Virus record (IMG/VR): IMGVR_UViG_3300009165_000005
DNA from: a virus
Taxonomy: Duplodnaviria > Heunggongvirae > Uroviricota > Caudoviricetes
Reading direction: 5' to 3' (one strand)
Length of the DNA: 64,000 nt
Below the pieces are notes generated by a model. That model did not search any database, was not told where the DNA came from, and was given only the letters and a program-made list of their open reading frames with translations. The position numbers and the translations under genes were made by a program. This document shows, piece after piece, positions 20,838 through 44,156 of the stretch (within the stretch, counting starts at the first letter, position 1; every line of letters begins with the position of its first letter).

Positions 20838-21734
20838 TTATTGGTGCTTATCTTTTACTACATCCTTATTTTTCTCCCAGTGTGTAGCTATCTCCTCCAA
20901 CTGGTCCTCAGTTAGTGCAGGATTAGATGACTTAAACCCGTCAATTACGTCCTGTCTCGTAGTAGCCTGGATCGGTCCCATGGCTTCGAGAGCCTGCTGG
21001 GATGTCTGGGATAGGGCCATGAGCACCCGACGTACCCGACGACTAGCCTCTTTGGGCGGAATGCGAGCGGACTCTACATCAGCGGCGATCCGACGGAGGG
21101 CTGTTGCAATATGACTGGTAGAAGCTGCTCGGAACATGGATGCTCTCTTTCCTTGACTTGGTACTGTGGTTGAGGAGTGCTTGATTGTCTTCAACGCCCT
21201 ATCGGCAAGTTCTTTGATGTCTTCAAGCTTCCCTTGAAGTTGAGGGGGTAGATCCTTACGTAATCGTGCCGCCTCTAGAAGGATGTTTTCGAGACTCGTA
21301 GTGATCTGATTAATGTCCTTCACGTCAAGAGCCCCAGCCATCCTCGGTTGCCCTTGCTCCGGACGAGGTTGAATGAACGGAGACACCCGATCAATTTGAC
21401 GTATACGGACATCCCTGAGAACGTCCTCCAACTCCTCAACCTTCTCAGGCCTGAGTTGAGTCTTTAGCTCCTCATAGTCCAAACGCGAGGCCGCCAAAGC
21501 CGTAGCCCCCAAAGCCTTGTCCAACTTGAACAAGGCATCTGGGATCCCATAGATTGCATCCCCAGCAACTTCATAGAGATGATCCCTTTGAGGAGAAGAA
21601 GCAATCAATCGAACTACCTGACTGACGAACTTCTTAAGTTGCTCGCAACGAAGGCGAGCATCTGTAAGTTCCTCTACAAGATAGACCAGTACACCAGCTT
21701 CTTTATTGGTTCCCGTAGAGTTTACGTTATCCAT
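20838..21734 (-). CDS. Hypothetical helical protein, probable virion/head component (298 aa)
   Basis: Full-length ORF in the late cluster carrying KEAG, KRAS, RAAS, RIAA and KEAS motifs. Confidence 0.65.
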   Translation of the reverse strand: MDNVNSTGTNKEAGVLVYLVEELTDARLRCEQLKKFVSQVVRLIASSPQRDHLYEVAGDAIYGIPDALFKLDKALGATALAASRLDYEELKTQLRPEKVEELEDVLRDVRIRQIDRVSPFIQPRPEQGQPRMAGALDVKDINQITTSLENILLEAARLRKDLPPQLQGKLEDIKELADRALKTIKHSSTTVPSQGKRASMFRAASTSHIATALRRIAADVESARIPPKEASRRVRRVLMALSQTSQQALEAMGPIQATTRQDVIDGFKSSNPALTEDQLEEIATHWEKNKDVVKDKHQ

Positions 21735-21744
21735 CGAGCTAGCT

Positions 21745-21794
21745 AAAGTACAAGAAGACTACCGGCTCAATCAGGTAGATCTAGCCGGTAGTCT
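21745..21794 (-). terminator. Terminator-like hairpin overlapping a candidate late promoter
   Basis: Perfect 12-bp stem AGACTACCGGCT/AGCCGGTAGTCT, 8 nt after the 430-aa stop; tail TCTTGTACTTT; 3' arm plus tail reads TAGTCTTCTTGTAC. Confidence 0.6.
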
Positions 21795-21801
21795 CAGCAC
21801 C

Positions 21802-23094
21802 TCAACCAGGAAACGCTTCAGGGAACTCTTCGATGAGTAGCTTCTTGAACTCGTCACTTTCAGCAGCGAAAATAGCCCGGATGACCTCCGGACACTTCTC
21901 GTAATTCAAACGAATCATCGCTATCCGACGCTTCCAGTGGTCTGAGAAGTTGTAATCATCCGGGAAGTCCTTACAGAGACCTTTGGCTACCCTTCTTCGG
22001 TAGTCAGCTGTCCCATCATTGTCGATACGAGATCTCGGTTCATCATCTGACGGCATGGATACCGTGGTCTCAAATGTTGGAGCTGGTTGCGACCCCATAC
22101 CCTTCTTAGGCCCATTGGTGTTCCGAAAAGTAATCCCCTCTTGCTCCATAACCGACTCCACAGCATGCCCTGTTGAGCCCGAAGCATCGAAGGTCTCTAC
22201 ACCTCCACCTGAGGTCAACCCAACTGAGATCCCTTCCTGAACCCTAGCTTGACTAGGCGCTACCTTGCCAACTACAGGAGTTGCAGATGCAACCATGACT
22301 CGAGCCTTTGGTTGAGCTTGAGAACGCATACCTGATTGATTCATCGAGGCTAGGTTGGTAGTGACTACTGGAGGTGGTACGTAACCTGGAGTTCTACTCT
22401 GGATATCACCCTTCCGAGCCTCCTTCTCAGCCACATAGATTGACCGCTCTTCATCGGTCATCTTGGATAGGAGATCCCCCTCAGAGATCCCCTCACCAGG
22501 TTGAATCTTGACCAACTCCGCATCTCGAATAGCGGTACCAACTGTGTTGGGGGTCACCTGAGGTGCGGTCTTAGCCGAGGTCTTGAATTGTCTCTCAACC
22601 TCAACCCCAAACTCAGCACCACCAATCAAATCAGAACTACTCCCTCGTGCCACGAAGGCTCCTGCTCTTCCGGTAGACTGCCTAACCTCAGCGGTCCTCT
22701 GCCGGGCTTGTTGAGTCCTAGCAGAGCTACTCATGACCACCCGCTCATCAGATTCAACGGTAACGATGGCGGACTTCTTTGGAGGAGATAGTGGGTTCTG
22801 GCCTAAGTCATTGGCTGCCCGAACCCCAATATTCGCAGACGGGTTGGCTACTGGAGCTGCACCCGGATTGTATTCGTCAGCAGGTACAATCCACCCCATC
22901 CTAATGGCCCCTCGAAGGGTAGGTAGCATGAAACGGCTACCATTCAGCTCTACAATAGTACCATCAAACAGAATCTCCATCCCATCGTAGACACTGTAAT
23001 TAGTACCGCCCAAAGTGAACGCTTTCGTCGAGATAAAGCGTTCCATTTTTCCCGGTGTAAATCTAATCTGGGTCTGATTGGCTTCCATTGTCAT
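21802..23094 (-). CDS. Hypothetical protein (430 aa) with folded ends and a low-complexity middle
   Basis: Strong SD GAGGAGG, long ORF, same-strand packing. Confidence 0.7.
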   Translation of the reverse strand: MTMEANQTQIRFTPGKMERFISTKAFTLGGTNYSVYDGMEILFDGTIVELNGSRFMLPTLRGAIRMGWIVPADEYNPGAAPVANPSANIGVRAANDLGQNPLSPPKKSAIVTVESDERVVMSSSARTQQARQRTAEVRQSTGRAGAFVARGSSSDLIGGAEFGVEVERQFKTSAKTAPQVTPNTVGTAIRDAELVKIQPGEGISEGDLLSKMTDEERSIYVAEKEARKGDIQSRTPGYVPPPVVTTNLASMNQSGMRSQAQPKARVMVASATPVVGKVAPSQARVQEGISVGLTSGGGVETFDASGSTGHAVESVMEQEGITFRNTNGPKKGMGSQPAPTFETTVSMPSDDEPRSRIDNDGTADYRRRVAKGLCKDFPDDYNFSDHWKRRIAMIRLNYEKCPEVIRAIFAAESDEFKKLLIEEFPEAFPG

Positions 23095-23133
23095 GGCCTC
23101 CTCGGCTCATGACACACCCATGATAAGTACTTT

Positions 23134-23185
23134 AAACAAGTCAGGTGCCGTGAGTCACCCAGTAGCACTGAACTCACAGCACCTG
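23134..23185 (-). terminator. Long hairpin after the HU gene, probable terminator
   Basis: CAGGTGC-TGTGAGT...ACTCACG-GCACCTG (14-bp stem, 1 G-U) followed by ACTTGTTT. Confidence 0.65.
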
Positions 23186-23207
23186 TCGAAGAAAACCGAA
23201 GTAGAAC

Positions 23208-23615: not shown

Positions 23616-23745
23616 AACTTACATTCCTTCTGATCTGAGTTAGTTTGCGGAAGGAACACTCTCCACTCCGTCTAGGTGGTAACAACTACACCACCGACTA
23701 CCAATCTATAGAGGTGGACAAGAAATAAATCTAGGGACCCCCTAC

Positions 23746-24201
23746 TTAGCCCTCAACCGGTGTCTCTGAGCTAGCCCATAAGGCTGATAGCTCTACCTGA
23801 TCGCCCGAGTTGACCGTCAGCATCGCCTGCTGAGCAAAAGCAGTCTCCTCCTCACGTGCTCTTAGGAAGGTGTCTATCTGGGCTTTGATTTGTTCGTAGG
23901 CTTTCCTCAAAGCCTCTTGTTCAGAATCAGCCTCTCCACTGAACTCTTGACGGAACACATCCTCGAAGGTCTTTTGGGAGACCGCCTCAATGGAGCCTGG
24001 ATCCAGAGTAGTCCGGTACCCAGTATATGTGGTACCAACCAGCTTTACGGTCACTACCCAAGTAGGGGTGTCAGGCAGGTCCGTTGGGGTGTTTTTGAAC
24101 TCGAAGGTGACGTTAGTAACCGCGTTGCGGTTGATCGACCTACCGTAGAGATGAAGAGCGCCTGAAATGGAGGACAAGATACTCATGCCCTCTGAGTACA
24201 C
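23746..24201 (-). CDS. Hypothetical protein (~146-151 aa)
   Basis: ORF between the capsid terminator and HU; an alternative ATG at 24186 is plausible. Confidence 0.6.
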   Translation of the reverse strand: MYSEGMSILSSISGALHLYGRSINRNAVTNVTFEFKNTPTDLPDTPTWVVTVKLVGTTYTGYRTTLDPGSIEAVSQKTFEDVFRQEFSGEADSEQEALRKAYEQIKAQIDTFLRAREEETAFAQQAMLTVNSGDQVELSALWASSETPVEG

Positions 24202-24342
24202 CGAGAATCAGGGCAACTTGATCAACCAAACAATATCCCCTCTCATAGGAAGTGGGCGCTAGTACGGAGCGAAACACCCATAACAGGTCTTTTGTTCTTT
24301 GATTAGGCTATGTTGCTTCGATAGAATCACGACTTGGTGCTT

Positions 24343-24379
24343 AAAGAGGAAGGCCGGGAGTCCTTTCGGAAACCCGGCC
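24343..24379 (-). terminator. Rho-independent terminator after the major capsid gene
   Basis: GGCCGGG-TT-TCC-GAAA-GGA-CT-CCCGGCC followed by TTCCTCTTT. Confidence 0.85.
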
Positions 24380-24403
24380 CACACTCAATTCAGCCTAATT
24401 TTC

Positions 24404-25276
24404 TTAGACTCGCGTTACCACTACCCTGGTGAGGCCACGGGGGTTGAACGCGCCAATACCGATATTTTGGAAACAACTGAACCCAATCGTACGCGCCTTG
24501 GGATCATCTGCACTCAAAACTGTAAGTTCTGTACGTACGGGTATCCGGCCGAAATTTTCAGGCTCAGCGGAAATATACACAAAACCAGCAGGGACCAAAC
24601 GGCTCGTGATGATCTGGGCGCCCCAAAGGGTTGCCTGGAGACCAGTCTTGAGCAGAACGGCCTGACTCTCGATATCCAGAATGTCGCGTCCGAACTTACG
24701 GATGTCCGCGTAGTCCACCGCGTTCATATAGATACGAGCGACCCTAAGGTCGTGACGCTCTACCTCAGCAAAGGCATCCGCGAGGACACTTGGGCTGATT
24801 GGAGCCACGACGTTGAGGTCGGGGTTCGTCTGACCTGGCAAGGTATCGAAGCCAGAGACTGCGATCGAGTCGAGGACTGCAAACACGCGCTCGTCTTCCG
24901 CGGCCTGGATCTGGGCTTTCGCCAAGTCCTGAGCGCGTTCGATGAGATCGAATCGGCGTTCCTTGATCTGAGTAAGGGGGATCTCGGGGTTCGAGGCAAG
25001 CTCGAACAACGGGAAGATGACCCTTCGGGGCTTCTGGATGGCAAGGATGTTCTCACCCTCTTCACCGACCACGTAGGCGGTGACATCCGGATCCTTATCG
25101 TAGATCGGGAGAGCACCATCCGGGAGTTGTTCGACTAAGAAGGTCTTACGACCCACAGCCGTGTAATCTCTGCGAAGACGCAGAGGCTGAATCATCGAAG
25201 CGGCAAGCTTAGCTCGACCAGCAGCCGTTTTGATGTACTCACTAATGATCTGTTGCTTGATGTCGTTGCTAACCAC
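24404..25276 (-). CDS. Major capsid protein (HK97 fold, 290 aa)
   Basis: Last gene of the portal-protease-scaffold-decoration series, followed by a strong terminator. E-loop-like EQLPDGALPIYDKD..AYVVGEEG and P-domain-like LFELASNP..AEDERVF, GAQIITSRLVPAG. Confidence 0.85.
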   Translation of the reverse strand: MVSNDIKQQIISEYIKTAAGRAKLAASMIQPLRLRRDYTAVGRKTFLVEQLPDGALPIYDKDPDVTAYVVGEEGENILAIQKPRRVIFPLFELASNPEIPLTQIKERRFDLIERAQDLAKAQIQAAEDERVFAVLDSIAVSGFDTLPGQTNPDLNVVAPISPSVLADAFAEVERHDLRVARIYMNAVDYADIRKFGRDILDIESQAVLLKTGLQATLWGAQIITSRLVPAGFVYISAEPENFGRIPVRTELTVLSADDPKARTIGFSCFQNIGIGAFNPRGLTRVVVTRV

Positions 25277-25299: not shown

Positions 25300-25935
25300 T
25301 CAGATCCTGAGGTCGACGATCAGCATGGGGGTGGTGGCATCGACAGCAGCCTTGAGAACGCCGACAACAGTGGGAGTCAGACTCTCACTGGTTTCAAGGG
25401 AGTCGGCGGAAACGTTAGTGATCAATCCATTGATACTCGCGTATAGGAGATCACCAGCAGTATAGGTAATAGCATCACCCTTTGTGTGCCCACCACCAGT
25501 TAGCTGATACTGGGTTTCGTAGATCGTTAGACCTACGCAAGAACCAGATCCGCAAACGTACGGTCCACGACCCGATGCCGGTCCGGGAGTGTTCTCGTAG
25601 GCGTTACCAGCAGCATCATTCAAGAAGATGCCGAGGGGACGCATACCGGTGCTAAACACGGTTGGAGGATCTGCAGGGGTTCCTGCGGGACCCCCAATCA
25701 CATTGTTTCCCGCCACAGGGCGAGTGAAGGCGAATGACCCACCGAGCACACCAGTCTTGGTGATCCCGGATAGGGTGGTACTTTTTGCTGAAGCGCCCGT
25801 TGCGAGTGCAGGATTTGCTTGGGTGAAGGCATCTGCCGCGAGGACACCCACACTATTGCGGGTGACGACGTGAAACAGTTGGACTCGACCTGAGGTTTCC
25901 CTGAATTCGCCCGAGCTTTGACCGTTCATGGACAT
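25300..25935 (-). CDS. Capsid decoration/cement protein (beta-tulip-like)
   Basis: Immediately upstream of the MCP gene; RPLGIF..TYTAGDLLYASINGLIT..VVGV. ATG at 25935 (SD GGGA) preferred over the TTG at 25968. Confidence 0.65.
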   Translation of the reverse strand: MSMNGQSSGEFRETSGRVQLFHVVTRNSVGVLAADAFTQANPALATGASAKSTTLSGITKTGVLGGSFAFTRPVAGNNVIGGPAGTPADPPTVFSTGMRPLGIFLNDAAGNAYENTPGPASGRGPYVCGSGSCVGLTIYETQYQLTGGGHTKGDAITYTAGDLLYASINGLITNVSADSLETSESLTPTVVGVLKAAVDATTPMLIVDLRI

Positions 25936-26079
25936 ACTTATGTTCCCTGTTGGGTTAAAGTTGAGCAAACTTCATATTCATCTACATCTAGGCAATCACT
26001 GCATCTCAACGAATTGAGACCTCAGGACTGAGAGCTCTTCTAAGTGGAGCTGATCACACAACCCCACCTAACAAGTTCA

Positions 26080-27618
26080 TTAATCAGTTCGCATGCCGAA
26101 GGCCTCACGAACATCCGGAGCTGAATTCCAGATCCTCGAGAGATCTCGTCCAGCACTTACATTCGAGGGGACCCCACCAATCTGGCTGACACCAGCAGTG
26201 GGTCGTGTTCCGACAGTCCTCATAGAGGCAGTTCGGACAACATGAGCTTGCTTCTGCTGAGCTTGGCCTTGGCCCTGATCTTCCTGACCTTGACCAGCCG
26301 CTTCTTGGGCATTCTTGTACTCAGTGTTAGAGAACAGCTGACGGAGAGCATTGTCCTCATCGGGCGTGAGTTGAGCCTCACCAACATCCATATTGGGGGT
26401 ATCCAACTGAATATCCATATCGGCAACGGGCTCGATCTGACCTTGCTCAGCAAGCATCTGATCGATTTCGCTACCTACTTGTTGCTGGCTTTGACCCAAG
26501 CATTGTTGAGCAGCCTGAACCGGATCCTGACCCTGGGCGATGGCTTGCTGAACAGCCTGAGCTACCTGCTGAGCCTGGGACTGTTGCTGCATCTGAGCTT
26601 GTTGCTGCTGCTGACCCGCCTGCTGCTGCTGAGTCTGAACCTGCTGGGCTTGAGCCAATTGCTGCTGGATCTGCTGAGCCTGCTGAATCAACTGGGCAAG
26701 TTGCTGTTGCATTGCCTGTTGCTGCATCTCAGCTTGCTTCTGCTGGCCTTGACCTTGATCTTGCTGACCCTGGTCCTGTTGAGCTTGCTTCTGCTGAGCT
26801 TGACCTTGATCTTGCTGACCCTGGTCCTGTTGAGCTTGCTTCTGCTGTCCCTGGCCCTGCTGACTCTCTTGACCTTGCTCACCTTGCTCATCCGCAGCAA
26901 GACGCGTATAGGTAGACATTAACTCCGCATCAGGGAGGTACATGAAGGAATAGCTCTGATTTTCAACTTCCGCAGCAGATGCGGTCTTGGGAAGGATCTT
27001 ACGAGCAATAGCTACACAAAGAGCTGCCTTCTTGTCAGTGGCTTCGCTCTTCTCATCATCGTCTTCCTTCTCTTCCTTCTTCTTCTTGATGTTCTCAAGA
27101 AACTGAGGAGGTATCTGACCCGCTTGCTTCTGCTGACTCTGACCCTGACTCCCTTGGTCTTGCTCCTCTTGCTCTTCTTGTTCATCAGCGGCAAGACGAG
27201 TATAGGTAGCCATCACCTCTGCATCGGGGAGATACATGAAGGAGTAGCTCTGATCCTCAAGCTCCGCCGCGGAGGCGGTCTTGGGAAGGATCCTGCGAGC
27301 AATAGCCACACAGAGAGCTGCCTTCTTCGTAATGACTTCTTCGGAGGCAGTTTTCTCAGGATGATTGAAGGTATCGGATCTCATCTCAGGCATACCAATC
27401 TCATTACGCTTGACCTGACCACCAGCGTATTCAGCTTCCCAAGTTCCATTTGAAGGATGGATATCCTCAGCAAAGTCCGAAGGCCCACCAATCACGTACT
27501 GGTCGGCGGAGGGCTGCTGATTAACGTGATCCTGATTCATCAAGTAGGGGTCGGCGACTTTCATACCAGCCCTCTTGGCGATTGCATTTACGTTCCAAGT
27601 TGAGCGCTCACGAGGCAT
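26080..27618 (-). CDS. Gln-rich prohead scaffolding/core protein (512 aa)
   Basis: Position between protease and capsid genes; Q/E-rich; duplicated ~50-aa block. Confidence 0.65.
   Translation of the reverse strand: MPRERSTWNVNAIAKRAGMKVADPYLMNQDHVNQQPSADQYVIGGPSDFAEDIHPSNGTWEAEYAGGQVKRNEIGMPEMRSDTFNHPEKTASEEVITKKAALCVAIARRILPKTASAAELEDQSYSFMYLPDAEVMATYTRLAADEQEEQEEQDQGSQGQSQQKQAGQIPPQFLENIKKKKEEKEDDDEKSEATDKKAALCVAIARKILPKTASAAEVENQSYSFMYLPDAELMSTYTRLAADEQGEQGQESQQGQGQQKQAQQDQGQQDQGQAQQKQAQQDQGQQDQGQGQQKQAEMQQQAMQQQLAQLIQQAQQIQQQLAQAQQVQTQQQQAGQQQQQAQMQQQSQAQQVAQAVQQAIAQGQDPVQAAQQCLGQSQQQVGSEIDQMLAEQGQIEPVADMDIQLDTPNMDVGEAQLTPDEDNALRQLFSNTEYKNAQEAAGQGQEDQGQGQAQQKQAHVVRTASMRTVGTRPTAGVSQIGGVPSNVSAGRDLSRIWNSAPDVREAFGMRTD
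26886..27330 (-). repeat. Duplicated ~50-aa block in the scaffold (two copies 294 nt apart)
   Basis: KKAALCVAIAR[RK]ILPKTASAAE.E.QSYSFMYLPDAE.M.TYTRLAADEQ x2, followed by 16-aa QQKQAQQDQGQQDQGQ repeats (about 26735-26850). Confidence 0.9.
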
Positions 27619-27649: not shown

Positions 27650-27663
27650 GTATAAGAGCTTCA
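27650..27663 (-). promoter_or_regulatory. Candidate late-promoter motif (TGAAGCTCTTATAC)
   Basis: Intergenic, upstream of the scaffold gene; CTTRTA core. Confidence 0.3.
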
Positions 27664-29307
27664 TCGACGTCCGAGAGAGAACAATTTACCTTTAGTGACC
27701 AATTGAACCTTCTCAGAGTTAGTGAGGGTTCGGCCCAGTACCTCACGACAAGCCGCAAGGTATTTATCTACATTTGGATATGAGGTTATTCCGCCCAGTG
27801 CGATGACGGTCCTATAAATCCGAGCATCGCCTGCCATCGAGGATTTCCTCTCGGACCTCTCAAGAAGACGATTCATGACGAGAATTTCCCGTCCTGAGAA
27901 TCTGTTAGCCCTACCTACCGCTTCCCATCCGCCATGGTCATGCAGAATCAGTCCAGCTAGGATGTTCCTAGCTAAGGAGGGGTCTCTAACGTTGGCAAGT
28001 ACCATCTTTGATCGCTCACGCCACTTCGAGTAACGTAAAGCAGACTTGATAAGAGATTCATTGGACCGATTCTCGTCCAAGGTACTCTCCTCACCCTTGT
28101 TGGCTTCGGAGATGTCTTTCTTGACCTTGTTCGTGACCTCTCCAACCAAAGACTCATACAAATCGTTGATGACTTGTTTGAAGGGCTTGGTTGAGTCCTC
28201 AGTAGATGGCTCTGAGGAGGGTGATCCACTCATCTCAGCTTGTCCGGGGAAATCCTGCTGAGCGGTATTAATCTGTTGGATTCGGGCCTTGTGAGCCTCA
28301 ACAGCCTTGGAGGTTCCAGAAAACGGTGGCGGAGCGCGAAGAGTTCCAATTGAGGGCCCGTCATGCAAGTATGAGAGGTAGTCTGCAGGCTTCGCTGGAG
28401 CTCCAACTCCAATGGGTGCGAGCCTCGCTGCCTTCTGCATGGTATTCGGGTCGAAAACCTCTGTGGGCCTCATGAAGGCCACTTGAATCCTCTGTCGAGC
28501 TGCCTCTGCCAACTCAGCTGTCTTGGGATCAAGAATGGATCTAAGTACAGCTCCCGAAAAGGCTGGGTGCGCTACCCAAGAGGCCTCAATGAACTTGACT
28601 GAATTGGGATCAGAATAGTGACCACAGAGCTCAGCTATCTTGCGTCGCTTACCCTTTGGGTCTAAGAACGTTTGACCCTTAAAGTATCGGATATGCTTGC
28701 ACAATTGACTTTCATCTTCGGCCACATTCCCACATTTAGTGCACTGGGTATATGATACCTGGCACCCCATGCTAAGGGTTCCAAGGGTTCCATTGGAAAT
28801 TGCCTCAATGAGATCTTTGTGCTTCCTATCCGTAGCTACTAAGATATCGACATAAACTGAATCCCCAATGTCTCGAGCTGCAGCATCAATGATCTTACCT
28901 TTGGAAAGCTCAGGGATCTGAATATGCTCAACGAAATTGCTTCCACCAATGAACGTTCTGTAGCAAGAAAGAAGGAGTTTTCTCTCCCAGCTATCCTGAT
29001 TCGAATTAATATACTTCTCAGTTCCACGTGTGATGTAGAAGTCTGGGAACCGTCTGTCAATCTGAAGTCCCTCAAACATTTGCTTACCCGTAGGAAGCCC
29101 AGGGAATTCAGTATCGACCGAAGCAATGATAGTCACATGGCTCAATAAGTACTGAGCTGGATCATACTGCTGAAGTACCACTTGAGAGGCACTTCGCAAC
29201 TCAAACGAAGGTTCTGGATGAGTTGCCTTGGCACGAAAGTCATCCCATCCAGAAATGCTTATTGCTGGATGCACAACTTGGGCCCTAGCATACTTAGGGA
29301 AACTCAT
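27661..29307 (-). CDS. Prohead maturation protease with a Zn-finger insertion (548 aa)
   Basis: INSNQDSW..YRTFIG..VEH..GKIIDA..LSMGC (candidate catalytic His/Ser), CTKCG..CKH insertion, IEASWVAHPAF; upstream of scaffold and MCP. Confidence 0.7.
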   Translation of the reverse strand: MSFPKYARAQVVHPAISISGWDDFRAKATHPEPSFELRSASQVVLQQYDPAQYLLSHVTIIASVDTEFPGLPTGKQMFEGLQIDRRFPDFYITRGTEKYINSNQDSWERKLLLSCYRTFIGGSNFVEHIQIPELSKGKIIDAAARDIGDSVYVDILVATDRKHKDLIEAISNGTLGTLSMGCQVSYTQCTKCGNVAEDESQLCKHIRYFKGQTFLDPKGKRRKIAELCGHYSDPNSVKFIEASWVAHPAFSGAVLRSILDPKTAELAEAARQRIQVAFMRPTEVFDPNTMQKAARLAPIGVGAPAKPADYLSYLHDGPSIGTLRAPPPFSGTSKAVEAHKARIQQINTAQQDFPGQAEMSGSPSSEPSTEDSTKPFKQVINDLYESLVGEVTNKVKKDISEANKGEESTLDENRSNESLIKSALRYSKWRERSKMVLANVRDPSLARNILAGLILHDHGGWEAVGRANRFSGREILVMNRLLERSERKSSMAGDARIYRTVIALGGITSYPNVDKYLAACREVLGRTLTNSEKVQLVTKGKLFSLGRR

Positions 29308-29308: not shown

Positions 29309-30055
29309 CTAGACCCCTACTCCGAACCACTGATGAGGTTCACCAGTGGGGCCAAGAATCGAAATCGGGTCGATGATGTAGAGGCACTTCGGGCAGGCAA
29401 AGACCTTGTGCCGAGCACCCTCATGCATCTTATAAGTAGCACGACGCATCCGATTCGAGCACTTCGGGCATGCGGGCTTACCCATCTTGATGTCCTCAGC
29501 CGTAGCCCTGTACTGCCTGTTCTGAGAGACCCAGTAGGCGGAGGACTTCTGAAGATGAGCCTCAATCCTCATGTCTCCAGAGTTCTTTGCAAATCGGTAA
29601 AACTTAGAGACTTCTGATCGAAGTTCCTCATCATTCACATTTGGGTAAAGAGCGCGATAGAGATCGTCATAAGCAATGATCTCGCTCGCGCCCTTATGCC
29701 AACGCCTCGCCAGCTCTACATAAACCGAGGGCTGGAATTGCTTACTCCAGAGGGAACTCGAGGAAGCTTCCTTCCTAGCCCTCTCGATCTCTACGGTTAG
29801 GTAACTCTGATCAAATTGAGGTGGCAGATACCGGATGAATTTAGGACTGACCCTAACAATGTCATCCGGAAACACACGCTCATTACCAAATGGCCATTGG
29901 ACATCAAGTACGCCAAGGCCCTTGTGGACAGCAGTGACCGTCCCAACATAAGGCGAGAGATCCCCACCAATGACGTCGATCTTTTGGACCACATCACCTT
30001 GGGTAAATTCCTTTACAAGTTTCCAATAGTCGATCATTGAAACCCGTCCCGCCAC
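29309..30055 (-). CDS. Head-cluster protein with an SH3/KOW-like N-terminus and C-terminal zinc ribbon
   Basis: GDVVQK..YVGTVTAVHKGLGVLDVQW; CPKC...CPKC. Start may be the ATG at 30037. Confidence 0.6.
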   Translation of the reverse strand: MAGRVSMIDYWKLVKEFTQGDVVQKIDVIGGDLSPYVGTVTAVHKGLGVLDVQWPFGNERVFPDDIVRVSPKFIRYLPPQFDQSYLTVEIERARKEASSSSLWSKQFQPSVYVELARRWHKGASEIIAYDDLYRALYPNVNDEELRSEVSKFYRFAKNSGDMRIEAHLQKSSAYWVSQNRQYRATAEDIKMGKPACPKCSNRMRRATYKMHEGARHKVFACPKCLYIIDPISILGPTGEPHQWFGVGV

Positions 30056-35743: not shown

Positions 35744-36280
35744 CTAGATGCTAACTTGAACCCCCATGTAGAAGTTAGTAAGGCTAGACGGGGCCTGGGT
35801 CACGAACCCAATGAAGTAAGTATTTGGTGCACGAGGATCCCCAGAGAGGGTCCATTCGTCCTCAGACGTCCAGTACCCTCGTAAAGAGAACAAGAGACGA
35901 TCACTCGCGTGATACACAATAGGTACTAATGGACCACTTTGACGAGAGGCATAGGTGTATCGCTCAAAAGTTGTGGTCAATATGTGCCACCCTCCAGCCC
36001 CGACGGTACCAAACCGGTAGTAGGGTTGGTTCGCTGTCATTGACGTGAGCTGGTCCCCAGATTCAGAAGATCCCCAGAGCATGAACCCAGCGTAGTAACC
36101 ATCAGATTGGGTCACCAAGAACTCATCTAAACTTGACCCAACCCACTGGACTGCTTGACCACCCCGCCAACCCTGAGTCGCTAGAATGCTGTCAACCGTG
36201 ACGGGGTAGGCATCTCCTTTGGCGAGAATTATGCAATCCCGATCCCGAATGGGCTCGTTGCTGACGAGCTGCTCAGGCAC
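35744..36280 (-). CDS. Decoration-like protein, paralogue 1 of 3
   Basis: RDC..KGD..GWRGGQAVQW..YTYASR..SLRGYWTSEDE..GDPRAP. GTG at 36280 (SD AGGAG, TAGTG overlap) preferred over 36388. Confidence 0.7.
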   Translation of the reverse strand: MPEQLVSNEPIRDRDCIILAKGDAYPVTVDSILATQGWRGGQAVQWVGSSLDEFLVTQSDGYYAGFMLWGSSESGDQLTSMTANQPYYRFGTVGAGGWHILTTTFERYTYASRQSGPLVPIVYHASDRLLFSLRGYWTSEDEWTLSGDPRAPNTYFIGFVTQAPSSLTNFYMGVQVSI

Positions 36281-37329
36281 TAGATGGTCTCCTGCTTCTT
36301 CTTGAGCCCTGGTGTCTGAGCCCAAGCGGAGATGATGTCTTGAAGAAGCTTGTTCTGCTGTATGTCGCCACTCAAGAACTTCTCCCAAGAACCTCCCTTG
36401 TTCCTAAATACCAAACGAATCGACTTGAATTCTGGATCCTCAATCAAGTACTCAGTCCCCAAGAGATGATCTACAAGTTGCCGGATGATTCTGTGGGCAA
36501 AGACCAACGGAGGACTTGTTTCGGGATCCAAACCTGCGGTCTTCTCGTTAAGCTTCTCGATTACAGTACCATCCTTTAGGTAAGCTTCCTCGAGAGCTGG
36601 TACCAAGTATTGACTCCTCAAAGTTGAGGCCTCGTGCCCAACAGCTTCAGCCGCCCCCTCGAGAGCCTTCTTGAACTCCTTCTTAAGAATCTCGTCCTTT
36701 CTCTTCCGATCAGAGGGGAGTTCAGGTCCCTTAGACCTGATGGACCGCAGACGTTCCTGCATCTCCCGATTGGCATGAAGTCCTCGAAGGTCCTTCGCCG
36801 TGATATTGAAAGAACTCAAGTATTCGTTGACCTCCTTTGAGCCAACACCCTCAAACAGACCTCCAGTTTCTTTCTCAACGGAGTCATAGGCTGACTTCAA
36901 GGCTGGGAGGATCTTTGGGTCGTCAACCACCTTCTCATGCTTCACTCCTGACTTCCCAACATAATGAATGGTGACTCGACCCTTACCCATCAATAGGTGT
37001 TGCTTTTGCCACCCGGTAACCCCAAAGTGCCCACGCTCTTCGGCAGACTCATCATTGCCGACACGCTCATAAGTGTGGTCGATCAAAGCAACGACAAGCG
37101 CCGTCAACTTGGTCTTCGTATTCTTTGACTTCAGATCCTTCTCTACCTTACTACGGAGCTTCCCTAGAGAGGACTTGAACTCTTCGATCCGATCTGCCTT
37201 CTCATTGTTTCTGATGGCAACCTGACGGGGACTGTACACATAAATGGTGTTCCCACTCTCCAGCTTCTTCTTTTTCTGGTATCTAGCGGCAACACGAAGT
37301 GAGATCTCATCTAGGATTGGGAATCTCAA
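36280..37329 (-). CDS. Type IB DNA topoisomerase
   Basis: Catalytic pentad pattern: ERVGN (R), YVGKSG (K), AKDLRG (K/R), VGHEA (H), RSQYL (Tyr nucleophile). Confidence 0.8.
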   Translation of the reverse strand: MRFPILDEISLRVAARYQKKKKLESGNTIYVYSPRQVAIRNNEKADRIEEFKSSLGKLRSKVEKDLKSKNTKTKLTALVVALIDHTYERVGNDESAEERGHFGVTGWQKQHLLMGKGRVTIHYVGKSGVKHEKVVDDPKILPALKSAYDSVEKETGGLFEGVGSKEVNEYLSSFNITAKDLRGLHANREMQERLRSIRSKGPELPSDRKRKDEILKKEFKKALEGAAEAVGHEASTLRSQYLVPALEEAYLKDGTVIEKLNEKTAGLDPETSPPLVFAHRIIRQLVDHLLGTEYLIEDPEFKSIRLVFRNKGGSWEKFLSGDIQQNKLLQDIISAWAQTPGLKKKQETI

Positions 37330-39323
37330 GGTAGCCTCCTGGAAAGCATCCGAGGAATCATACGGTCAAGGATGGCTCCATGCTTTCGCATCCGTGTCAT
37401 CCTGTAGTTGCGCGGGGTGGTCTCTCTCTGAATTGATCGAGTCTCACTCTGCAAACTACCTTTGGACACTAGTTTGATATTGGTGATCCTAGCTAAAGAT
37501 AACCATACTGCCCGAACGAAGGCATCTACCACATCATCATGAAGGCCAGAAACCTTTGGGGCCTCTACGATGATCTGATTCTTGGATCGTTGAGTAGCTT
37601 CTAGCCCTAACACCTCACTGATGAACGGGGAGTGCTTCCCGCTCTCCATTTCTGTTGGTAGCGGGTAGTCATAGAGCTCCAACTTGCGGTCAAACATTAG
37701 CATCTTGACCGCCTGGAACATACGACTCTTCTCATCCTGAGTGAAGAACTCGCTACGGAACTGCTTCAACCCCTTCTTATGAAGAGATTGCTCAAGTGGT
37801 AACCCATTCCAACGGTCAAACAAACCCTCTGTGATATAGAACTTCTTGCAAATGGCATAGATCCAGTCAGCAATAGCATCGAAGTCCAATCTCTCGACGG
37901 TCTCTAGGATCTTGGCGTAATCACTCAGAGGGATTTGGAGTTGAGGGTTGGATTCCTTCCACGGAATCCCGGCATACCAAACCTCATGGTAGTCCTGTAT
38001 GATTCGGTCACCCTCTGCATGAGTGATGAAGATTGCAGTACCATCTCCGATTAGCCCAACGTCAATACCCATCTGGTGAGGGTTACGAGGGCGACCTGCA
38101 AGGATGGGTTTTCGCTCTGGCTTGATACAAGCCAAGAGATCTCCCTCTCGCTCCACCCAACCACGAACTCGATCTGAGAATTGGGCCCCAAACTCCGTCA
38201 TGAAGATAGTGGGATCCTCATGGTACTTCTCTCGAAGGAATGTCGAATCACAATCCTTGTAAACTTCCCAAGTGGGGGCTTGGATAGCCAACATATTCTC
38301 CGAGCCAGCAGCTCGAGACATGGCGAAATGAAACAACTCGTAGAACTTACCTGCCCGATTTAGGGGGGAAGAGATCGAGATGATGCGACTCTCGACCGGA
38401 CCTATTGTATCGTTAGTCTCTGGATCCTTCGGAGAAAATGCTAAAGCCGACGGAGCGATTGCCTCGTAAATGTCCTTGGCTGAGCTAACACCCTTGTCTT
38501 GAAAATGAGCCAACTCATCGAGGATGATGACGATGTTACCCGATCCACGAAGACCTTTTGACACACTAGCCTTGAAGGTGATCTTCAAACTAGCCTTGCC
38601 GTTAAAGCTTGTGAACTTACCATTCTCGTGTCTGACAGTTGGACCAAACTTCTCAATGTCGTACGGGGTTCTGAATTGAACATAACTAAGCGTATTGTTG
38701 GCAATATATGGCTGAAAGAACTCACACTTCGCCATGTGTGCGGTCACATCACTAAAGAGTAGGCCTGCTTGGTCCTTATCCGTGGCTACCGAGATGATCT
38801 GAATTCGATTCCCATTTGGGAGTCCGTAATAGGCTTGAGGATTGCCAAGGGAAATCAGCCGGTACAACTCGTAACTAGCGAAAATCGCTGACAATGTGGT
38901 CTTTCCGGATCGTCGGCCGAGTGCCAAAACCAACTGTCGACGAACATGATCCTGCTCACCAATATTGCAGCGACCTTCACTGAATAGGTAGCGTAGGTAC
39001 TCAGTTTCAGTGAATCGATACAGGACCCTTGTCTTGAACATGTCATGAATGACGATGTTCTGCTCAGTGTCATTCAAAGGGATGCCATAATACAGCTTAA
39101 CGATGAAGCGTTGTATCGGATACAACCTCATCCCCAAGCCCCAAGATGACTCCGCATATTGTAGGACATTGAAGATCTTAATACGACGCCCGTCGTAGGT
39201 GATCTCACTCAAGTCCTTAGAATCCGAAACTTGCTGTGTGTTCTCCAGGATACTCTTCGCCTGTTGTCCGGCACTCCGGATCAGCTGAGAGATACCCATG
39301 GACTTGGTATCTTTGGTTGCCAC
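37326..39323 (-). CDS. terL: Terminase large subunit
   Basis: Walker A LGRRSGKT, Walker B IILDELAH, IISISSP, nuclease GIDVG and HDDVVDA. Confidence 0.92.
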   Translation of the reverse strand: MATKDTKSMGISQLIRSAGQQAKSILENTQQVSDSKDLSEITYDGRRIKIFNVLQYAESSWGLGMRLYPIQRFIVKLYYGIPLNDTEQNIVIHDMFKTRVLYRFTETEYLRYLFSEGRCNIGEQDHVRRQLVLALGRRSGKTTLSAIFASYELYRLISLGNPQAYYGLPNGNRIQIISVATDKDQAGLLFSDVTAHMAKCEFFQPYIANNTLSYVQFRTPYDIEKFGPTVRHENGKFTSFNGKASLKITFKASVSKGLRGSGNIVIILDELAHFQDKGVSSAKDIYEAIAPSALAFSPKDPETNDTIGPVESRIISISSPLNRAGKFYELFHFAMSRAAGSENMLAIQAPTWEVYKDCDSTFLREKYHEDPTIFMTEFGAQFSDRVRGWVEREGDLLACIKPERKPILAGRPRNPHQMGIDVGLIGDGTAIFITHAEGDRIIQDYHEVWYAGIPWKESNPQLQIPLSDYAKILETVERLDFDAIADWIYAICKKFYITEGLFDRWNGLPLEQSLHKKGLKQFRSEFFTQDEKSRMFQAVKMLMFDRKLELYDYPLPTEMESGKHSPFISEVLGLEATQRSKNQIIVEAPKVSGLHDDVVDAFVRAVWLSLARITNIKLVSKGSLQSETRSIQRETTPRNYRMTRMRKHGAILDRMIPRMLSRRLP

Positions 39324-39325
39324 GG

Positions 39326-39940: not shown

Positions 39941-39952
39941 AGGGCACCTCAC

Positions 39953-40360
39953 TCACTGAACCGGGTCAGCACCCCCGCCACCCTTGGTCTCAATGAGATA
40001 CTGAGACAAGTTACGAACTACATCGTACCCCTTGTCTTTTTTAATCTGAGTCTTGAGGACTTTAGACAGATCCTTTCCAGTTTCAGCTAGGTTGAGAACC
40101 CCCATTTGATTGGGGGTTCCAGCGAAAGCATCTTCTGGTCGAATGTCCTTGCGATTAGGAGGAACTATTTCGTCAATCCCTTGGTTCATACGCTGACCAT
40201 GGTCGTTAACAATCCTTCGCAAGATCCCCCGAGGCTTGTTCACAGGGAGCACAAGATCTTGAACCCTCTTGCGCATCCCAGGGAGTTGGTCTGCTCGAAC
40301 GAATCGAGCAGCCACTCGAAGGACTAGGGTGTCAACCGTAGTAGGATCATCGTGGATCAT
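39953..40360 (-). CDS. Hypothetical protein (135 aa)
   Basis: ATGA overlap with the upstream gene; N-terminal LRVAARF motif shared with TopIB. Confidence 0.65.
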   Translation of the reverse strand: MIHDDPTTVDTLVLRVAARFVRADQLPGMRKRVQDLVLPVNKPRGILRRIVNDHGQRMNQGIDEIVPPNRKDIRPEDAFAGTPNQMGVLNLAETGKDLSKVLKTQIKKDKGYDVVRNLSQYLIETKGGGGADPVQ

Positions 40361-42381
40361 AGGTTGATTGTCGCCCCACCCATCTCAACAGAAATCGTTG
40401 GAGACTTCTCTGGAGTTGGGTTCAACTCAATGTCCATCCCAGACTTGAGCTGCACAAGGTCAGCCACCGCAGATGGGTTATGGCTCATCAAACTGGCAAC
40501 TGAGACTTCATCAGCAGGCCCCGAAGCGAGGATCTCTCTTTGCTGAGCCTGCTTATTCGTATAAGGTGGATCGACTACGAGGTGTTTGGCATACTTGGAG
40601 CAGAACCCTGGATGCCTTTGCAGAACACAGGTTTGGCACTTTGATCCAAGTTTCACGTAGGGTACTTGACGAGCCCTATGCAGACGAGCACCCTCGTCAC
40701 AAGTACTACCGTAGTCGGTATACACCGTAGGATCTACGTAATAGATGCCCTGAAGCCCTTGCTCGCTCATAGCTACCTTGAGCTCAGCTTGTGATGCCAA
40801 GAGGTCCCTTGCATCAAACCGACCCTTCAAGGCTGTGAGAAGACGCTCCCCATACAAGCCCTCGTTCAAGAATCGAGAGGCTGTCTTGACGACATCTCTC
40901 TTAGTCAAACCAGAGGTGCTGTACCCAATAGATCCACCACAGAAGGCCTGCTCAACATAAGCCCGCATCGGGATCTGGGGTTGAGGAGTAGCTGCTGAAG
41001 CTGTTCGATAGATCTCCTTGAGCGCTTGTACCGGGGTCTCACCCCACTTGTAACTCTCCGCACCAGCTCCGAGATTACCTGCTTGCTTGTGCTCCCATAC
41101 TGCCTGACGAACGGTCTCTTCTGTGTATAAGTCTTCAGCTCGAGCTACGAGCTTCTTCCCATAGACCAGGCAGCGACTCAACTTGCTATAAATGCAGGTT
41201 GCACACTTAGCACTTGCCACAATACCCTTAATCAGGTGGTTGTGCTTCGCAATGAAGTCAGCCCCCTCGTGACAATTGTCGAAAGCCTCTTGTGTCGAGT
41301 AGACCGTTCCGTATAGACCTGCTTCCTTGTAGATCGGTTCCCAAGAGCTACGAGTAGTTCGCAAGTCGTCCAGGGTGAAGGAGAGCTTCAAGGCTTGTAA
41401 CAAATCAGACTCACTCCGACCCTTGAGCATCTCCCTCTGTAGAAAGGTACAGACATCGAAAGCCTTTCTACTTGATGCATTCTTGAAAGCCGCCACCCTA
41501 CCCTCAATAGGTGGCGCCCAAGCTAGTTGCTCAGCAATATTGTGCTGATTCTGAGAAGCCAATACCGGAAGGTGAACCTTGGGTGGATCCCCTGCCGCCT
41601 TAAGTTGATGAATCGGGTTCACCACTGGCTTCGGAGTCTCGACAGGCCCTGCTACCCGAACATCCTCTGCTAGGTATGCCGCCCTGATCCTCTCACGGGG
41701 ATCTTGACTCGAAGCTTGCACCTGCTTCCCACAGGCACACTGACTGTGTTCTACCGCATTAGCTAGCTCAGAGGAGTAAGGTACCTCGAGGACCAGCTCC
41801 TTGTGAAAAACTGAGCAAGTTGACTTGGCATTGTGAACACAGTCAAGGCACTGGTCCTTAGCCAACAAGAAACGAGCACTGCCGCCGTTGCGCTTTACGA
41901 AGTCGGACTCACTCTTGCTGGCCTTCTTGGAGCAACTAGGAAAGTCCTGAGCATCGATGTAGTATCGACCCAAGAGCCCACGTTCCTGTAGAATGCTGGC
42001 AAGCATTGGGCGAGCCGCTTGAAGCGTCCAAGAATCGAACCTGGTCTTCAGGGCATTACTGAAACAGGCTGGATCAGTAGACTGCATGAGAGCCAGACGA
42101 GCCACCTTAGAAACTCGTTGAAGGATCTCATCCGAAGCCAACTTACCATGAATCTCACTCAAGTCCCCCATAGTTCGAGGAACGTCTTTATTCGGAATCA
42201 GGTGAGTTGCGGGAGCCTCGTCCCTATGGTTCCAAGCAGCTTCCAGATCCGGAGCAAAGTCCAGGTTCTGCTTTGGTAGGTCAGCCAAATCCCTATAGGC
42301 CTTGTCATCAACGTCAAGCCACTCAAGATTGTTGACGGTGCCTTCCTTGAGGATAGCAGAGATGTCACCAAGATCAGCCAT
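40357..42381 (-). CDS. Protein with three Cys-rich repeat domains (674 aa)
   Basis: Three copies of E.GL.G..Y...C......CxxC......C..[FY].K.LV; SD AAGGA. Confidence 0.7.
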   Translation of the reverse strand: MADLGDISAILKEGTVNNLEWLDVDDKAYRDLADLPKQNLDFAPDLEAAWNHRDEAPATHLIPNKDVPRTMGDLSEIHGKLASDEILQRVSKVARLALMQSTDPACFSNALKTRFDSWTLQAARPMLASILQERGLLGRYYIDAQDFPSCSKKASKSESDFVKRNGGSARFLLAKDQCLDCVHNAKSTCSVFHKELVLEVPYSSELANAVEHSQCACGKQVQASSQDPRERIRAAYLAEDVRVAGPVETPKPVVNPIHQLKAAGDPPKVHLPVLASQNQHNIAEQLAWAPPIEGRVAAFKNASSRKAFDVCTFLQREMLKGRSESDLLQALKLSFTLDDLRTTRSSWEPIYKEAGLYGTVYSTQEAFDNCHEGADFIAKHNHLIKGIVASAKCATCIYSKLSRCLVYGKKLVARAEDLYTEETVRQAVWEHKQAGNLGAGAESYKWGETPVQALKEIYRTASAATPQPQIPMRAYVEQAFCGGSIGYSTSGLTKRDVVKTASRFLNEGLYGERLLTALKGRFDARDLLASQAELKVAMSEQGLQGIYYVDPTVYTDYGSTCDEGARLHRARQVPYVKLGSKCQTCVLQRHPGFCSKYAKHLVVDPPYTNKQAQQREILASGPADEVSVASLMSHNPSAVADLVQLKSGMDIELNPTPEKSPTISVEMGGATINL

Positions 42382-42392
42382 ATCAATTTCCT

Positions 42393-43889
42393 TCAGTGGT
42401 AGTCTTCGCGATACAAATCTTGTTGATCGTTACGGTAATCGTGAGCATCCCACTTGTACTTGACGTAGGGGACGTCCTGCTTTTCAGAGGTCTCACCAAC
42501 ATTGGGAGTGATGTCCCTATAATGATCGTAGGTGACAGAGCTATCTCCGGGTAACTCTGAATCCGCAAACATGTGCTCGAAGTTGTGGGAAGGTCTTGGA
42601 GTCAACGGAGCTTCAGGGGACGGAAAATCCATCTCAGGGAGACCAGAGGTTCCATGATGATGGACATTGAATTGATTCCCCTTGTCTCCATCAAAGTAGT
42701 CACTCCTAGCAACAGGGTCTGGACCATCGAAAGGAAGACCAGATTCAGCTATCGAGGCCCAAACATTGTAGGGCGATAAGTGGTCGTCGTAAGGGATCGA
42801 TCCAGAGTCTGGATCTCGTACGGGACCCTTCGGATCGTTTGGAAGACCACTTTGAGGACCAAAAACTCCTCGACCATCTGGGTTCTTGGTGCCGTACCCT
42901 TCTGACCCCTCACCTTTTGCACCATACCCTAAACCAAAGTCACGAGCCTCACCGTGAGTGTCATCATCCGAGGGTAAATTCGATGAACCCCATACAAAGG
43001 GTTCACTCGCAGATCGGCTGGTATCATTCTCCCAAGGAGTGGTATACAGGTATTCATTACCCACCCCCTCAGAACGACCCCAGTCGTCATCCACGGTTGG
43101 TTCATCCTTGTTGTAGGAGCCCCCAGGACCTTGTTGTTCCCCTCGATCAAGATGGTCCACTCGAGGTCCCGGAAGGGTATTGACTGGGAGCGATGAGTTG
43201 GCAACTCTTTGAATGAAGGGAGCCTTCCAGTCTCTTGACTGCTTGACTCGGAAGACGTCTCCAGCCGGAGTTGGTTCGCTTGTCTCCGAAGCCCCACCTC
43301 CAGGAATCCTAGAAGCCCCGGACTCACTGTTCTCTTTTTCGTGAATTCGATCCACAACCCCCTTGGTCTTTGATCCTGGTTTTTCAGCCTCGTCGACTTC
43401 CTTGTCCCCAAACTGTTCAGGATCCTCTAAGACCTCGTCAGCCTCTTCGATGAGTTCCTCAACTCCATTAAACCCATCCAAAGCCTTAATTTCAGGCTGC
43501 CAATGAGGAGCATGTAGTTCATCGTGTAAGGTATCAGTGATATTGGACAGGATCTCGCAAGCCTGTTGTAATTGAGACCTAACCTCCTTCACCTTCATCA
43601 CGTAGCCCTTGCCGCCCAACATGCCATCTGGGGAGATACTCGATGACTTGATTCGAGCAAACTCCTTGTAGGCCGTGATGCTGTGGCCAAGGGCAACTGA
43701 AGCAGCGAACAAGGTCCTTGCCAGGGGCCTCAACGCCCGCGGATTGTATTGGTGCCCTTGAGGTATGGCTCGTTTAGCTCCATCTCCAACTGGACTCTCA
43801 AACTTCTGAGTCGGAGGGGCCAAGGGGAGATTCTCCTCCCGAGCAACAATCACCCTGACCTTTTCACGATTGTCCAAGGTACACTCCAA
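42393..43889 (-). CDS. Hypothetical protein with a long acidic, probably disordered C-terminus (498 aa)
   Basis: Helical N-domain, then a D/G/P-rich tail with six S-x-L-P motifs; start uncertain. Confidence 0.7.
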   Translation of the reverse strand: MECTLDNREKVRVIVAREENLPLAPPTQKFESPVGDGAKRAIPQGHQYNPRALRPLARTLFAASVALGHSITAYKEFARIKSSSISPDGMLGGKGYVMKVKEVRSQLQQACEILSNITDTLHDELHAPHWQPEIKALDGFNGVEELIEEADEVLEDPEQFGDKEVDEAEKPGSKTKGVVDRIHEKENSESGASRIPGGGASETSEPTPAGDVFRVKQSRDWKAPFIQRVANSSLPVNTLPGPRVDHLDRGEQQGPGGSYNKDEPTVDDDWGRSEGVGNEYLYTTPWENDTSRSASEPFVWGSSNLPSDDDTHGEARDFGLGYGAKGEGSEGYGTKNPDGRGVFGPQSGLPNDPKGPVRDPDSGSIPYDDHLSPYNVWASIAESGLPFDGPDPVARSDYFDGDKGNQFNVHHHGTSGLPEMDFPSPEAPLTPRPSHNFEHMFADSELPGDSSVTYDHYRDITPNVGETSEKQDVPYVKYKWDAHDYRNDQQDLYREDYH

Positions 43890-44156
43890 TTAGGCCTTGA
43901 GAGGCGCCCCATTATCGTCAAAAGTCCTTTCAACAAACAAAGCCCCATCCCCTTGTCTGCGAATCGCCCACAAGTCCTTTGTTGACTTGTGGATCAACTC
44001 ATCAGCAGAAAGACGTATGAACGAGCTGAGGTCTTGAATAGAGGCCACCTTCATTCGAAGAGGGGTCACCATATTGGCGTTTCGAGCCAAGAAGCTATCT
44101 AACCCAGTTGAGGGTTGAACTTCGAAACTGCTGATATCGAAATCTTGCTCAGACAT
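43890..44156 (-). CDS. Hypothetical protein (88 aa)
   Basis: Tightly packed between neighbours on the same strand. Confidence 0.65.
   Translation of the reverse strand: MSEQDFDISSFEVQPSTGLDSFLARNANMVTPLRMKVASIQDLSSFIRLSADELIHKSTKDLWAIRRQGDGALFVERTFDDNGAPLKA

Follow-up and report, generated by a model that had tools for sequence, protein, structure and literature searches.

The herpesvirus protease assemblin (pUL26/UL80a, MEROPS S21) cuts at the consensus (V/L/I)-x-A|S, the scissile bond lying between Ala and Ser. It releases itself at one site, the R site, and cleavage at the M site detaches the scaffold from the tail that binds the major capsid protein (MCP) (PMC4498786). Among phages, gp21 of T4 cuts at [LI]xE, and gp175 of phiKZ and gp245 of SPN3US cut at [SAG]xE, codes that allow substrates to be predicted (PMC10052503, PMC5694885). 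Here we describe a candidate for another such code in a 64,000-nucleotide (nt) stretch of DNA (the window), which is contained in a 114-kb record of a virus of the Caudoviricetes (IMGVR_UViG_3300009165_000005). The motif [K/R]-x-A-[S/A/G/Q] recurs in head proteins of this virus, and we think it probable that a protease of 548 amino acids (aa) with the assemblin fold cuts after the Ala of this motif, maturing the head proteins of a huge phage.

To our knowledge, phage prohead proteases that process several substrates at a short motif have only two specificities, both after Glu (T4, and phiKZ and SPN3US). We found no description of a Lys/Arg-x-Ala specificity in the searchable literature, in which phage G is only partly covered. 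Among the published data for phage G, Tunturi_5 and the Bxz1-type phages, the three cultured relatives of this virus, we found only the length of the mature phage G MCP and no cleavage motif. The mass-spectrometry search in the 2025 phage G paper was a trypsin-only one. The code that we propose would be the third in phages; it would share cleavage after Ala with the herpesviruses and differ from them in its basic P3. It would extend the parallel between phages and herpesviruses from the fold of the protease to the logic of its substrates.

The resemblance to T4 and phiKZ lies in an assemblin-fold protease that would process the MCP, the scaffold, itself and internal proteins at a short motif. 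It ends at the site, where those enzymes have Glu at P1 and ours would have Ala at P1 and a basic P3, and at the sequence, since the window protease shows no detectable similarity to T4 gp21 or phiKZ gp175 (no Pfam match). The herpesvirus enzymes are closer in several respects. The protease has the same fold; P1 at the window site, as deduced from phage G, would be Ala, followed by a small P1' that is often Ser; and the sequence places one candidate site just after the catalytic domain and another near the scaffold C-terminus, before a conserved tail. The two systems differ in that P3 is Lys/Arg in the window and Val, Leu or Ile in herpesviruses, that the window protease carries a four-Cys insert and its scaffold many internal sites, and that protease and scaffold are encoded by separate, non-overlapping open reading frames (ORFs) rather than nested in-frame, with C-terminal sequences that are unrelated by eye. 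The mycobacteriophage Catera, one of the Bxz1-type relatives, comes nearer to the herpesvirus arrangement, as its gp94 is a single protease-scaffold fusion.

All long ORFs of the window are on the minus strand, as are all window features given below. The head module consists of a portal (31217-34159), identified by family scans, the protease (27661-29307; phrog_18299, head maturation protease), a Gln-rich scaffold candidate of 512 aa (26080-27618) and an HK97-fold MCP of 290 aa (24404-25276; phrog_2522, PF05065). We call the 512-aa protein the scaffold because of its gene position between protease and MCP. The MCP is 91-98% identical to the MCPs of many uncultured phages of 280-530 kb, and the clade as a whole holds 2,059 MCP clusters at E<=1e-10 and 2,066 protease representatives. 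Its cultured relatives are Bacillus phage G, Tunturiibacter phage Tunturi_5 and the Bxz1-type mycobacteriophages (Catera), whose MCPs are 37%, 48% and 27% identical to that of the window and whose protease domains are 33%, 38% and 30% identical. Phage G is, as far as we know, the only megaphage in culture. The head genes of phage G, of Tunturi_5 (gp331-334) and of the Bxz1-type phages (gp94-96) are true homologues of those in the window, with a shared gene order of protease, scaffold, small protein and MCP.

The catalytic domain of the protease occupies about residues 51-280 (nt 28468-29157) and is followed by a C-terminal extension of about 250 aa. An AlphaFold2 model built on 26 close homologues was unusable (pLDDT 44.6) and was replaced by one built on 54 diverse sequences (pLDDT 86.7, pTM 0.76). 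In a VIA-align comparison, the top 37 rows were all herpesvirus proteases (Z 11.7-7.3) or T4 gp21 (Z 9.1), with root-mean-square deviations of 3.1-4.8 over 113-146 aligned residues. The best scores, over model residues 44-285, were 11.7 for varicella-zoster virus, 11.0 for pseudorabies virus, 9.4 for herpes simplex virus 2 and 9.0 for human cytomegalovirus, so that the herpesvirus matches named here span Z 9-11.7 over about 130 residues; unrelated folds reached at most 6.9. Foldseek likewise placed T4 gp21 and herpesvirus proteases in its top rows, with weak E-values (0.017 or worse), and sequence searches with the protease against PDB and Pfam returned nothing significant. By its model, then, the 548-aa protease has an assemblin fold, that of the serine proteases of capsid maturation in the herpesvirus S21, T4 gp21, HK97 gp4 and phiKZ gp175 lineages. 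The fold and the arrangement of sites resembling the herpesvirus R and M sites go beyond the earlier note on this DNA, in which the motif was first pointed out.

Ser179, in LSMG (nt 28771-28773), and His128, in FVEH (nt 28924-28926), are invariant in the 54 sequences and in all four lineages (the window clade, phage G, Tunturi_5 and Catera). H57 or H230 is unlikely as the catalytic His, as neither is retained in phage G or Catera. The catalytic residues are probably Ser, His and an acidic residue, compared with the Ser-His-His triad of herpesviruses. Four invariant Cys (C189, C192, C203 and C228) follow the catalytic Ser (window 28630-28773, residues 179-226), in a region with weak Pfam zinc-ribbon matches. 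They would form a putative metal-binding insert, and we know of no such insert in T4 gp21 or in the herpesvirus enzymes. Many protease homologues are as long as 900-1,960 aa (L024:4759-7728, L014:4697-7645, L078:4731-7835, L075:5204-7966, P0005, P0008, P0014, P0020). In these, insertions of about 400-500 aa split the protease domain into 2-5 stretches, after about residues 61, 102, 126, 190 and 228. They resemble inteins or some other type of mobile insertion, here in an essential head gene.

Copies of the motif lie on both sides of the catalytic domain. On the N-terminal side, RSA|S (residues 38-41, 29185-29196) is a candidate self-processing site in the loop before the first strand, a region in which residues 30-42 have a pLDDT below 50. 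Aligned with it are KTA|A in phage G gp19, KTA|A in Tunturi_5 gp331 and KHA|E in Catera gp94. On the C-terminal side, KAA|R (residues 292-295, 28423-28434), just past the assemblin fold, is a candidate release site like the herpesvirus R site, with KTA|E (residues 262-265, nt 28513-28524) as another candidate. All 26 close homologues retain A293 and A294, and KAA stands in the consensus of the 54 sequences. The [KR]xA sites after the catalytic domain are KTA|E and KAA|R in the window and, in the other three lineages, KVA|S with KIA|S, KVA|S, and KTA|G. The motif also occurs at the extreme N-terminus of the protease (KYA, KIA, KTA) in the four-lineage alignment. Sites before and after the catalytic domain therefore stand at aligned positions in four lineages whose proteases are only 30-38% identical to that of the window.

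The closest link to a measured cut comes from the MCP. It holds two copies of the motif only, both within the first 26 residues: KTA|AG (nt 25220-25231, KTAA at residue 16) and KLA|AS (nt 25199-25210, KLAA at residue 23). The phage G MCP of 282 aa loses 27 residues, and its mature form of 255 aa (28.2 kDa) was defined by N-terminal sequencing (Hua et al. 2017, PMC5646251 Table 1). The mass that we compute for residues 28-282 of phage G gp27 is 28.17 kDa, and this match in mass and mature length places the phage G cut at GRVALA|QAMANP. In a BLASTP alignment (37% identity), GRVALA|QAM aligns without gaps to GRAKLA|ASMIQP of the window, so that the phage G cut falls inside the AKLAAS copy. The corresponding site is KLA|AS in Tunturi_5, as in the window, and RLG|QS in Catera. 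Among the best 120 of the 2,059 MCP clusters, KLA (once KIA) is retained in all readable sequences and all listed variants carry A, Q or S at P1', while the upstream KTA|AG copy is sometimes lost. By homology, the scissile bond would follow Ala and precede a small or polar P1', and the mature MCP of the window is predicted to begin at Ala26, with 25 residues removed.

The scaffold diverges much faster than the MCP, and its sites can be read against that background. In the best 120 of the 2,059 clusters the MCP is at least 86% identical, and the adjoining scaffold is only 40-80% identical in the same genomes. For conservation we used 53 non-identical homologues, with scaffolds 40-80% identical and MCPs more than 91% identical. 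The most striking site is RTA|S (residues 462-465, 26224-26235), a candidate counterpart of the herpesvirus M site, where a cut would release the last 48 aa as a C-terminal tail. R, T and A of RTA[SA] are each retained in 100% of these homologues and S in 83%, and the distance of the site from the C-terminus is 45-55 residues in 50 of 52. The sequence upstream of it is variable; the tail downstream is conserved (RTAxRTVGTxP..G...LSSLW.SAPDV). At position 89, KTA[SA] is retained (K 92%, T 90%, A 96%) with gaps on both flanks. Three more sites are preserved, KKA at 98, KTAS at 113 and RLA at 141, and KQA[GQA] recurs in repeats whose number varies. At the [KR]xA sites of the scaffold, P2 shows a 5-fold excess of Thr and P1' a 4.3-fold excess of Ser, and 35% of its K/R residues precede x-A in a protein of which Ala makes up 12.5%. 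A complex prediction of the protease domain with the C-terminal 80 residues of the scaffold scored 0.02; it gave no answer and counts neither way.

An alternative to cleavage, and the one that fares best, is that the motif is a short linear signal for binding or targeting, for example for docking on the inner capsid surface, the portal or the protease, and that most copies are uncut. RTA[SA] opens a longer invariant block (RTAxRTVGTxP..G), as a binding element might, and a separate N-terminal tag, RVAxR followed by an aromatic residue, occurs on two other window proteins, topoisomerase IB (TopIB) and a 135-aa protein. The distribution of copies fits a signal as well. The earlier note had remarked on copies at N-termini, and this clustering is borne out, with a copy starting in the first 40 residues in 8 of 22 head-region proteins against 2.5 expected (p=7e-4), compared with 1 of 17 tail proteins and 2 of 20 replication proteins, in regions whose boundaries were picked after inspection of the data. 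Such a pattern recalls the capsid-targeting sequence of T4. That sequence is itself cleaved off, so targeting and cleavage are compatible. Set against a pure signal are the coincidence of the MCP copy with the real cut of phage G, the sites on either side of the catalytic domain in four lineages, as expected for self-release, and the many copies in a disposable Gln-rich scaffold, which suit degradation better. We judge a signal left mostly uncut to be unlikely.

The cleavage reading presupposes that the motif is more frequent than chance would make it. Every copy named in the earlier note is present in the window proteins. Besides the MCP copies, these are 13 strict copies ([KR]-x-A-[ASGQ]) in the scaffold, with KQAE and KQAH in addition; RSAS at 38 and KAAR at 292 in the protease; six copies in a 298-aa protein (20838-21734) and 11 in a Cys-rich protein of 674 aa (40357-42381); LRVAAR at residues 11-16 of TopIB and 14-19 of the 135-aa protein; KVAS in an 88-aa protein; and RVAS in a 275-aa (SWIM) protein. 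Against expectations from composition-matched shuffles, the strict motif is found 13 times in the scaffold (2.4 expected, p<2e-4), 11 times in the 674-aa protein (2.7 expected, p<2e-4) and six times in the 298-aa protein (1.3 expected, p=0.0016; about 0.001-0.003 across tests). Together these make 30 copies against 6.2, with each protein 4-6 times over-represented. No other protein among the 122 ORFs of the 114-kb record reaches p<=0.002. The remaining head region holds 22 copies against 15.6 (p=0.07), the tail region 20 against 16.7 and the replication region 15 against 12.8. The excess is real in three proteins, and the rest of the record is near background. The comparison of head with replication proteins by shuffling, proposed in the earlier note, thus finds enrichment outside the scaffold, in the 674-aa and 298-aa proteins, and a replication region close to background.

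The motif classes were chosen in the earlier note after the same proteins had been viewed. We therefore applied four controls: an enumeration of residue pairs, the reversed motif, local shuffles and removal of the duplication in the scaffold. In an unbiased count of all residue pairs at spacings of 1-3 (about 1,200 tested), K-x-A was the top pair that is not of low complexity, both in the scaffold (15 against 3.0, z=7.2) and in the three proteins pooled (30 against 9.9, z=6.7). The reversed motif was at background, so the enrichment is directional. Shuffling within blocks of 15 or 30 residues left p<=2e-4 for the scaffold and the 674-aa protein. The scaffold contains an internal duplication of 51 aa (residues 96-146 and 194-244, 44 of 51 identical) and variable QQKQA repeats, and with one copy of the duplication removed the count was still 10 against 1.9. 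The motif without its basic residue, [^KR]xA[ASGQ], is at or below expectation, and the basic residue therefore matters. The known codes are not enriched in the scaffold: T4-type [LI]xE occurs once against 3.1 expected, phiKZ-type [SAG]xE 10 times against 9.6, and the herpesvirus-like [VLI]xAS not at all against 0.4. [LI]xE and [SAG]xE are also at background in the 674-aa and 298-aa proteins, the MCP and the protease.

We then have to ask whether the recurrence could be an artefact of composition, low complexity, repeats and degenerate classes fixed after the fact, with no functional motif behind it. The scaffold is rich in Gln and Ala, its duplication and tandem QQKQA units inflate the raw count, the classes were picked after inspection, and most of the listed proteins (protease, TopIB, SWIM, 88-aa) carry the motif at chance rate. 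The controls just described speak against this, as does the conservation of site positions while their flanks vary. The strongest answer to the post hoc objection comes from the three cultured phages, to which the motif was applied unchanged. Matching proteins are enriched in each: Tunturi_5 gp332, in the scaffold position, has 9 copies against 2.5 (p=6e-4) and gp328 14 against 3.8 (p=2e-4); the Catera gp94 protease-scaffold fusion has 14 against 5.6 (p=6e-4); and in phage G the gp19 protease has 4 against 0.75 (p=0.005) and gp7 has 9 against 2.2 (p=4e-4). Adjacent genes in the three phages are mostly near background. The late choice of classes is thus offset by the unbiased pair count and by this replication, and, with the shuffle and duplication controls, an artefact is largely refuted and very improbable as an account of the whole.

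In Catera, gp94 (L088:2342-6451) is a 1,369-aa protein in which the protease domain is fused to a C-terminal extension of 1,100 aa, an arrangement like that of herpesvirus pUL26. Its copies include NKTA|G past the protease domain, a KNASRTAAVRTAA cluster, and QRTA|G 21 residues from the C-terminus.

Cleavage of the sites by another enzyme or at another bond, such as a trypsin-like cut after Lys/Arg or the action of a host protease, would suit the basic residue as the most specific feature of the enrichment and an activity of the 548-aa protein that is assigned from sequence and model, but it is hardly credible, given that the mature phage G MCP starts after Ala, two residues beyond any basic position and in conflict with a trypsin-like cut, that the phage protease co-varies with the motif in four lineages and carries sites itself, and that the scans of head-region proteins identified no other protease.

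Several observations weigh against cleavage after [K/R]-x-A by the phage protease, and they temper our confidence in it. Proteolysis in this phage and its close relatives is deduced from sequence, and the experimental support is a single table entry for a homologue that is 37% identical. The phage G MCP site itself has Ala at P3, with Arg at P5, so a basic P3 would be frequent and not obligatory. The invariance of RTA|S could reflect binding by the longer block that it opens rather than cutting, and KKAA and RLAA in the duplicated domain of the scaffold, like KEAG in the 674-aa protein, stand in well-conserved, folded contexts. The full-length protease has no overall enrichment (1 copy against 1.8). 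In TopIB, the SWIM protein, the 88-aa protein and the large terminase (TerL; 37326-39323, identified by family scans), the lone copies are indistinguishable from the chance rate, and the choice of motif classes after viewing the proteins belongs on this side as well. The TerL family retains an N-terminal R-x-A-G. TerL is not expected in proheads, and since its copy is equally conserved, conservation alone is weak evidence at these distances.

The basic-x-Ala specificity proposed in the earlier note is nonetheless upheld indirectly, by the position of the MCP KLA|AS copy on the phage G cut, by the conservation in the scaffold, by the sites flanking the catalytic domain and by recurrence in relatives, in the modified form that a basic P3 is usual only. 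In the mechanism that we infer, the 548-aa protein would be the enzyme, would read Lys/Arg at P3 and would cut the other copies as well, in an order that we offer as a proposal. The protease would release its own catalytic domain at the sites on both sides, the C-terminal one resembling the herpesvirus R site. It would fragment the Gln-rich scaffold at many sites and, at RTA|S, detach the scaffold body from its conserved C-terminal tail, as cleavage at the M site does. At KLA|AS it would remove 25 residues from the MCP, and its trimming would extend to the 674-aa protein and, probably, to the 298-aa and 248-aa proteins. Such a rule would define the mature boundaries of capsid proteins for structural work and nominate scaffolds and packaged proteins from sequence. 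It would cover a very large and almost wholly uncultured clade, and the three relatives in culture make it testable.

The 674-aa protein is a candidate substrate or head-internal protein. It has no family match in PHROGs or Pfam, and an Atlas search gave no usable lead. A search for related loci returned none for this protein; a genome search gathered five homologues at 49-63% identity, and the sites at about residues 80, 295, 352, 432, 459, 499 and 610 are retained in most of them. The family also shows EG[KR][TV]A[ASG] in an otherwise variable linker. A Cys-bearing module occurs three times in the protein (ERGLLGRYYIDAQDFPSC, KEAGLYGTVYSTQEAFDNCHEGADF, EQGLQGIYYVDPTVYTDYGSTCDEGARL). The support for the 298-aa protein as a substrate is weaker than for the scaffold or the 674-aa protein. 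In this protein, [KR]xA alone is at background, yet all six copies precede [ASGQ], and two sites are retained in 9 and 12 of 16 aligned sequences. An Atlas search with it also gave no usable lead, and neither the 674-aa nor the 298-aa protein has BLAST counterparts in the examined parts of phage G, Tunturi_5 and Catera.

Enrichment at the level of the family points to further candidates. The family of the 248-aa protein (29309-30055), encoded between the portal region and the protease, has 117 copies against 29 expected in 37 homologues (ratio 4.0), and 26 of 38 aligned sequences retain KGA|SE; the window protein taken alone shows no significant excess. The observed/expected ratios of the other families are 3.3 for a 173-aa protein, 2.7 for a 359-aa protein and 2.5 for the 298-aa protein. 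The further suggestion of the earlier note, that the motif predicts the internal virion proteome, therefore holds in part. The three enriched proteins and the 248-aa, 173-aa and 359-aa families fit it; the single copies, the variation in TopIB and the TerL copy do not.

TopIB (36280-37329; PF01028) carries LRVAARY near its N-terminus (nt 37279-37296). Its RVAA is doubtful as a cut site, because two of four full-length homologues read RVVA or KVVA, which are not [KR]xA. With RVAARY, RVVARY and KVVAKY in homologues, the peptide is better described as a [KR]V[AV]x[KR]-aromatic tag than as a copy of the cut-site motif. The 135-aa protein (39953-40360) has LRVAARF near its N-terminus (nt 40301-40318), and [KR]VA is retained in six of six members of its family. 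L-[KR]-V-A-A-R-[FY] near the N-terminus is common to TopIB, the 135-aa protein and a 411-aa ORF outside the window (G000:C1, about 88322). In the record, [KR]V[AV]x[KR][FWY] has five matches in ORFs of at least 80 aa, against a rough expectation of less than one. This peptide may act as a tag, separate from the cut site, that marks cargo or directs targeting. A more speculative extension, which we regard as rather unlikely, is that the [K/R]-x-A| site and the [KR]V[AV]x[KR]-aromatic tag together form an address-and-trim code across the phage G/huge-phage clade, and that enzymes such as TopIB are loaded into the capsid and delivered with the DNA. Vaccinia virus delivers its own TopIB in the particle. 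If such a code were true, the packaged proteome of uncultured megaphages would be predictable from sequence alone.

Outside the window, a 445-aa ORF (G000:C1:104811-106148) has 4 copies of the motif against 0.7 (p=0.0045), which is borderline given the 122 ORFs tested. Two families encoded next to the MCP are depleted in the motif, with counts that are not independent, as their sequences are related. The family of the 151-aa protein (23746-24201), downstream of the MCP, has 1 copy against 4.4 in 14 homologues (ratio 0.23), and that of the 222-aa protein (25300-25968), upstream of it, has 4 against 26.6 in 60 homologues (ratio 0.15). The position of the 222-aa protein matches that of gp26, the capsid decoration protein of phage G.

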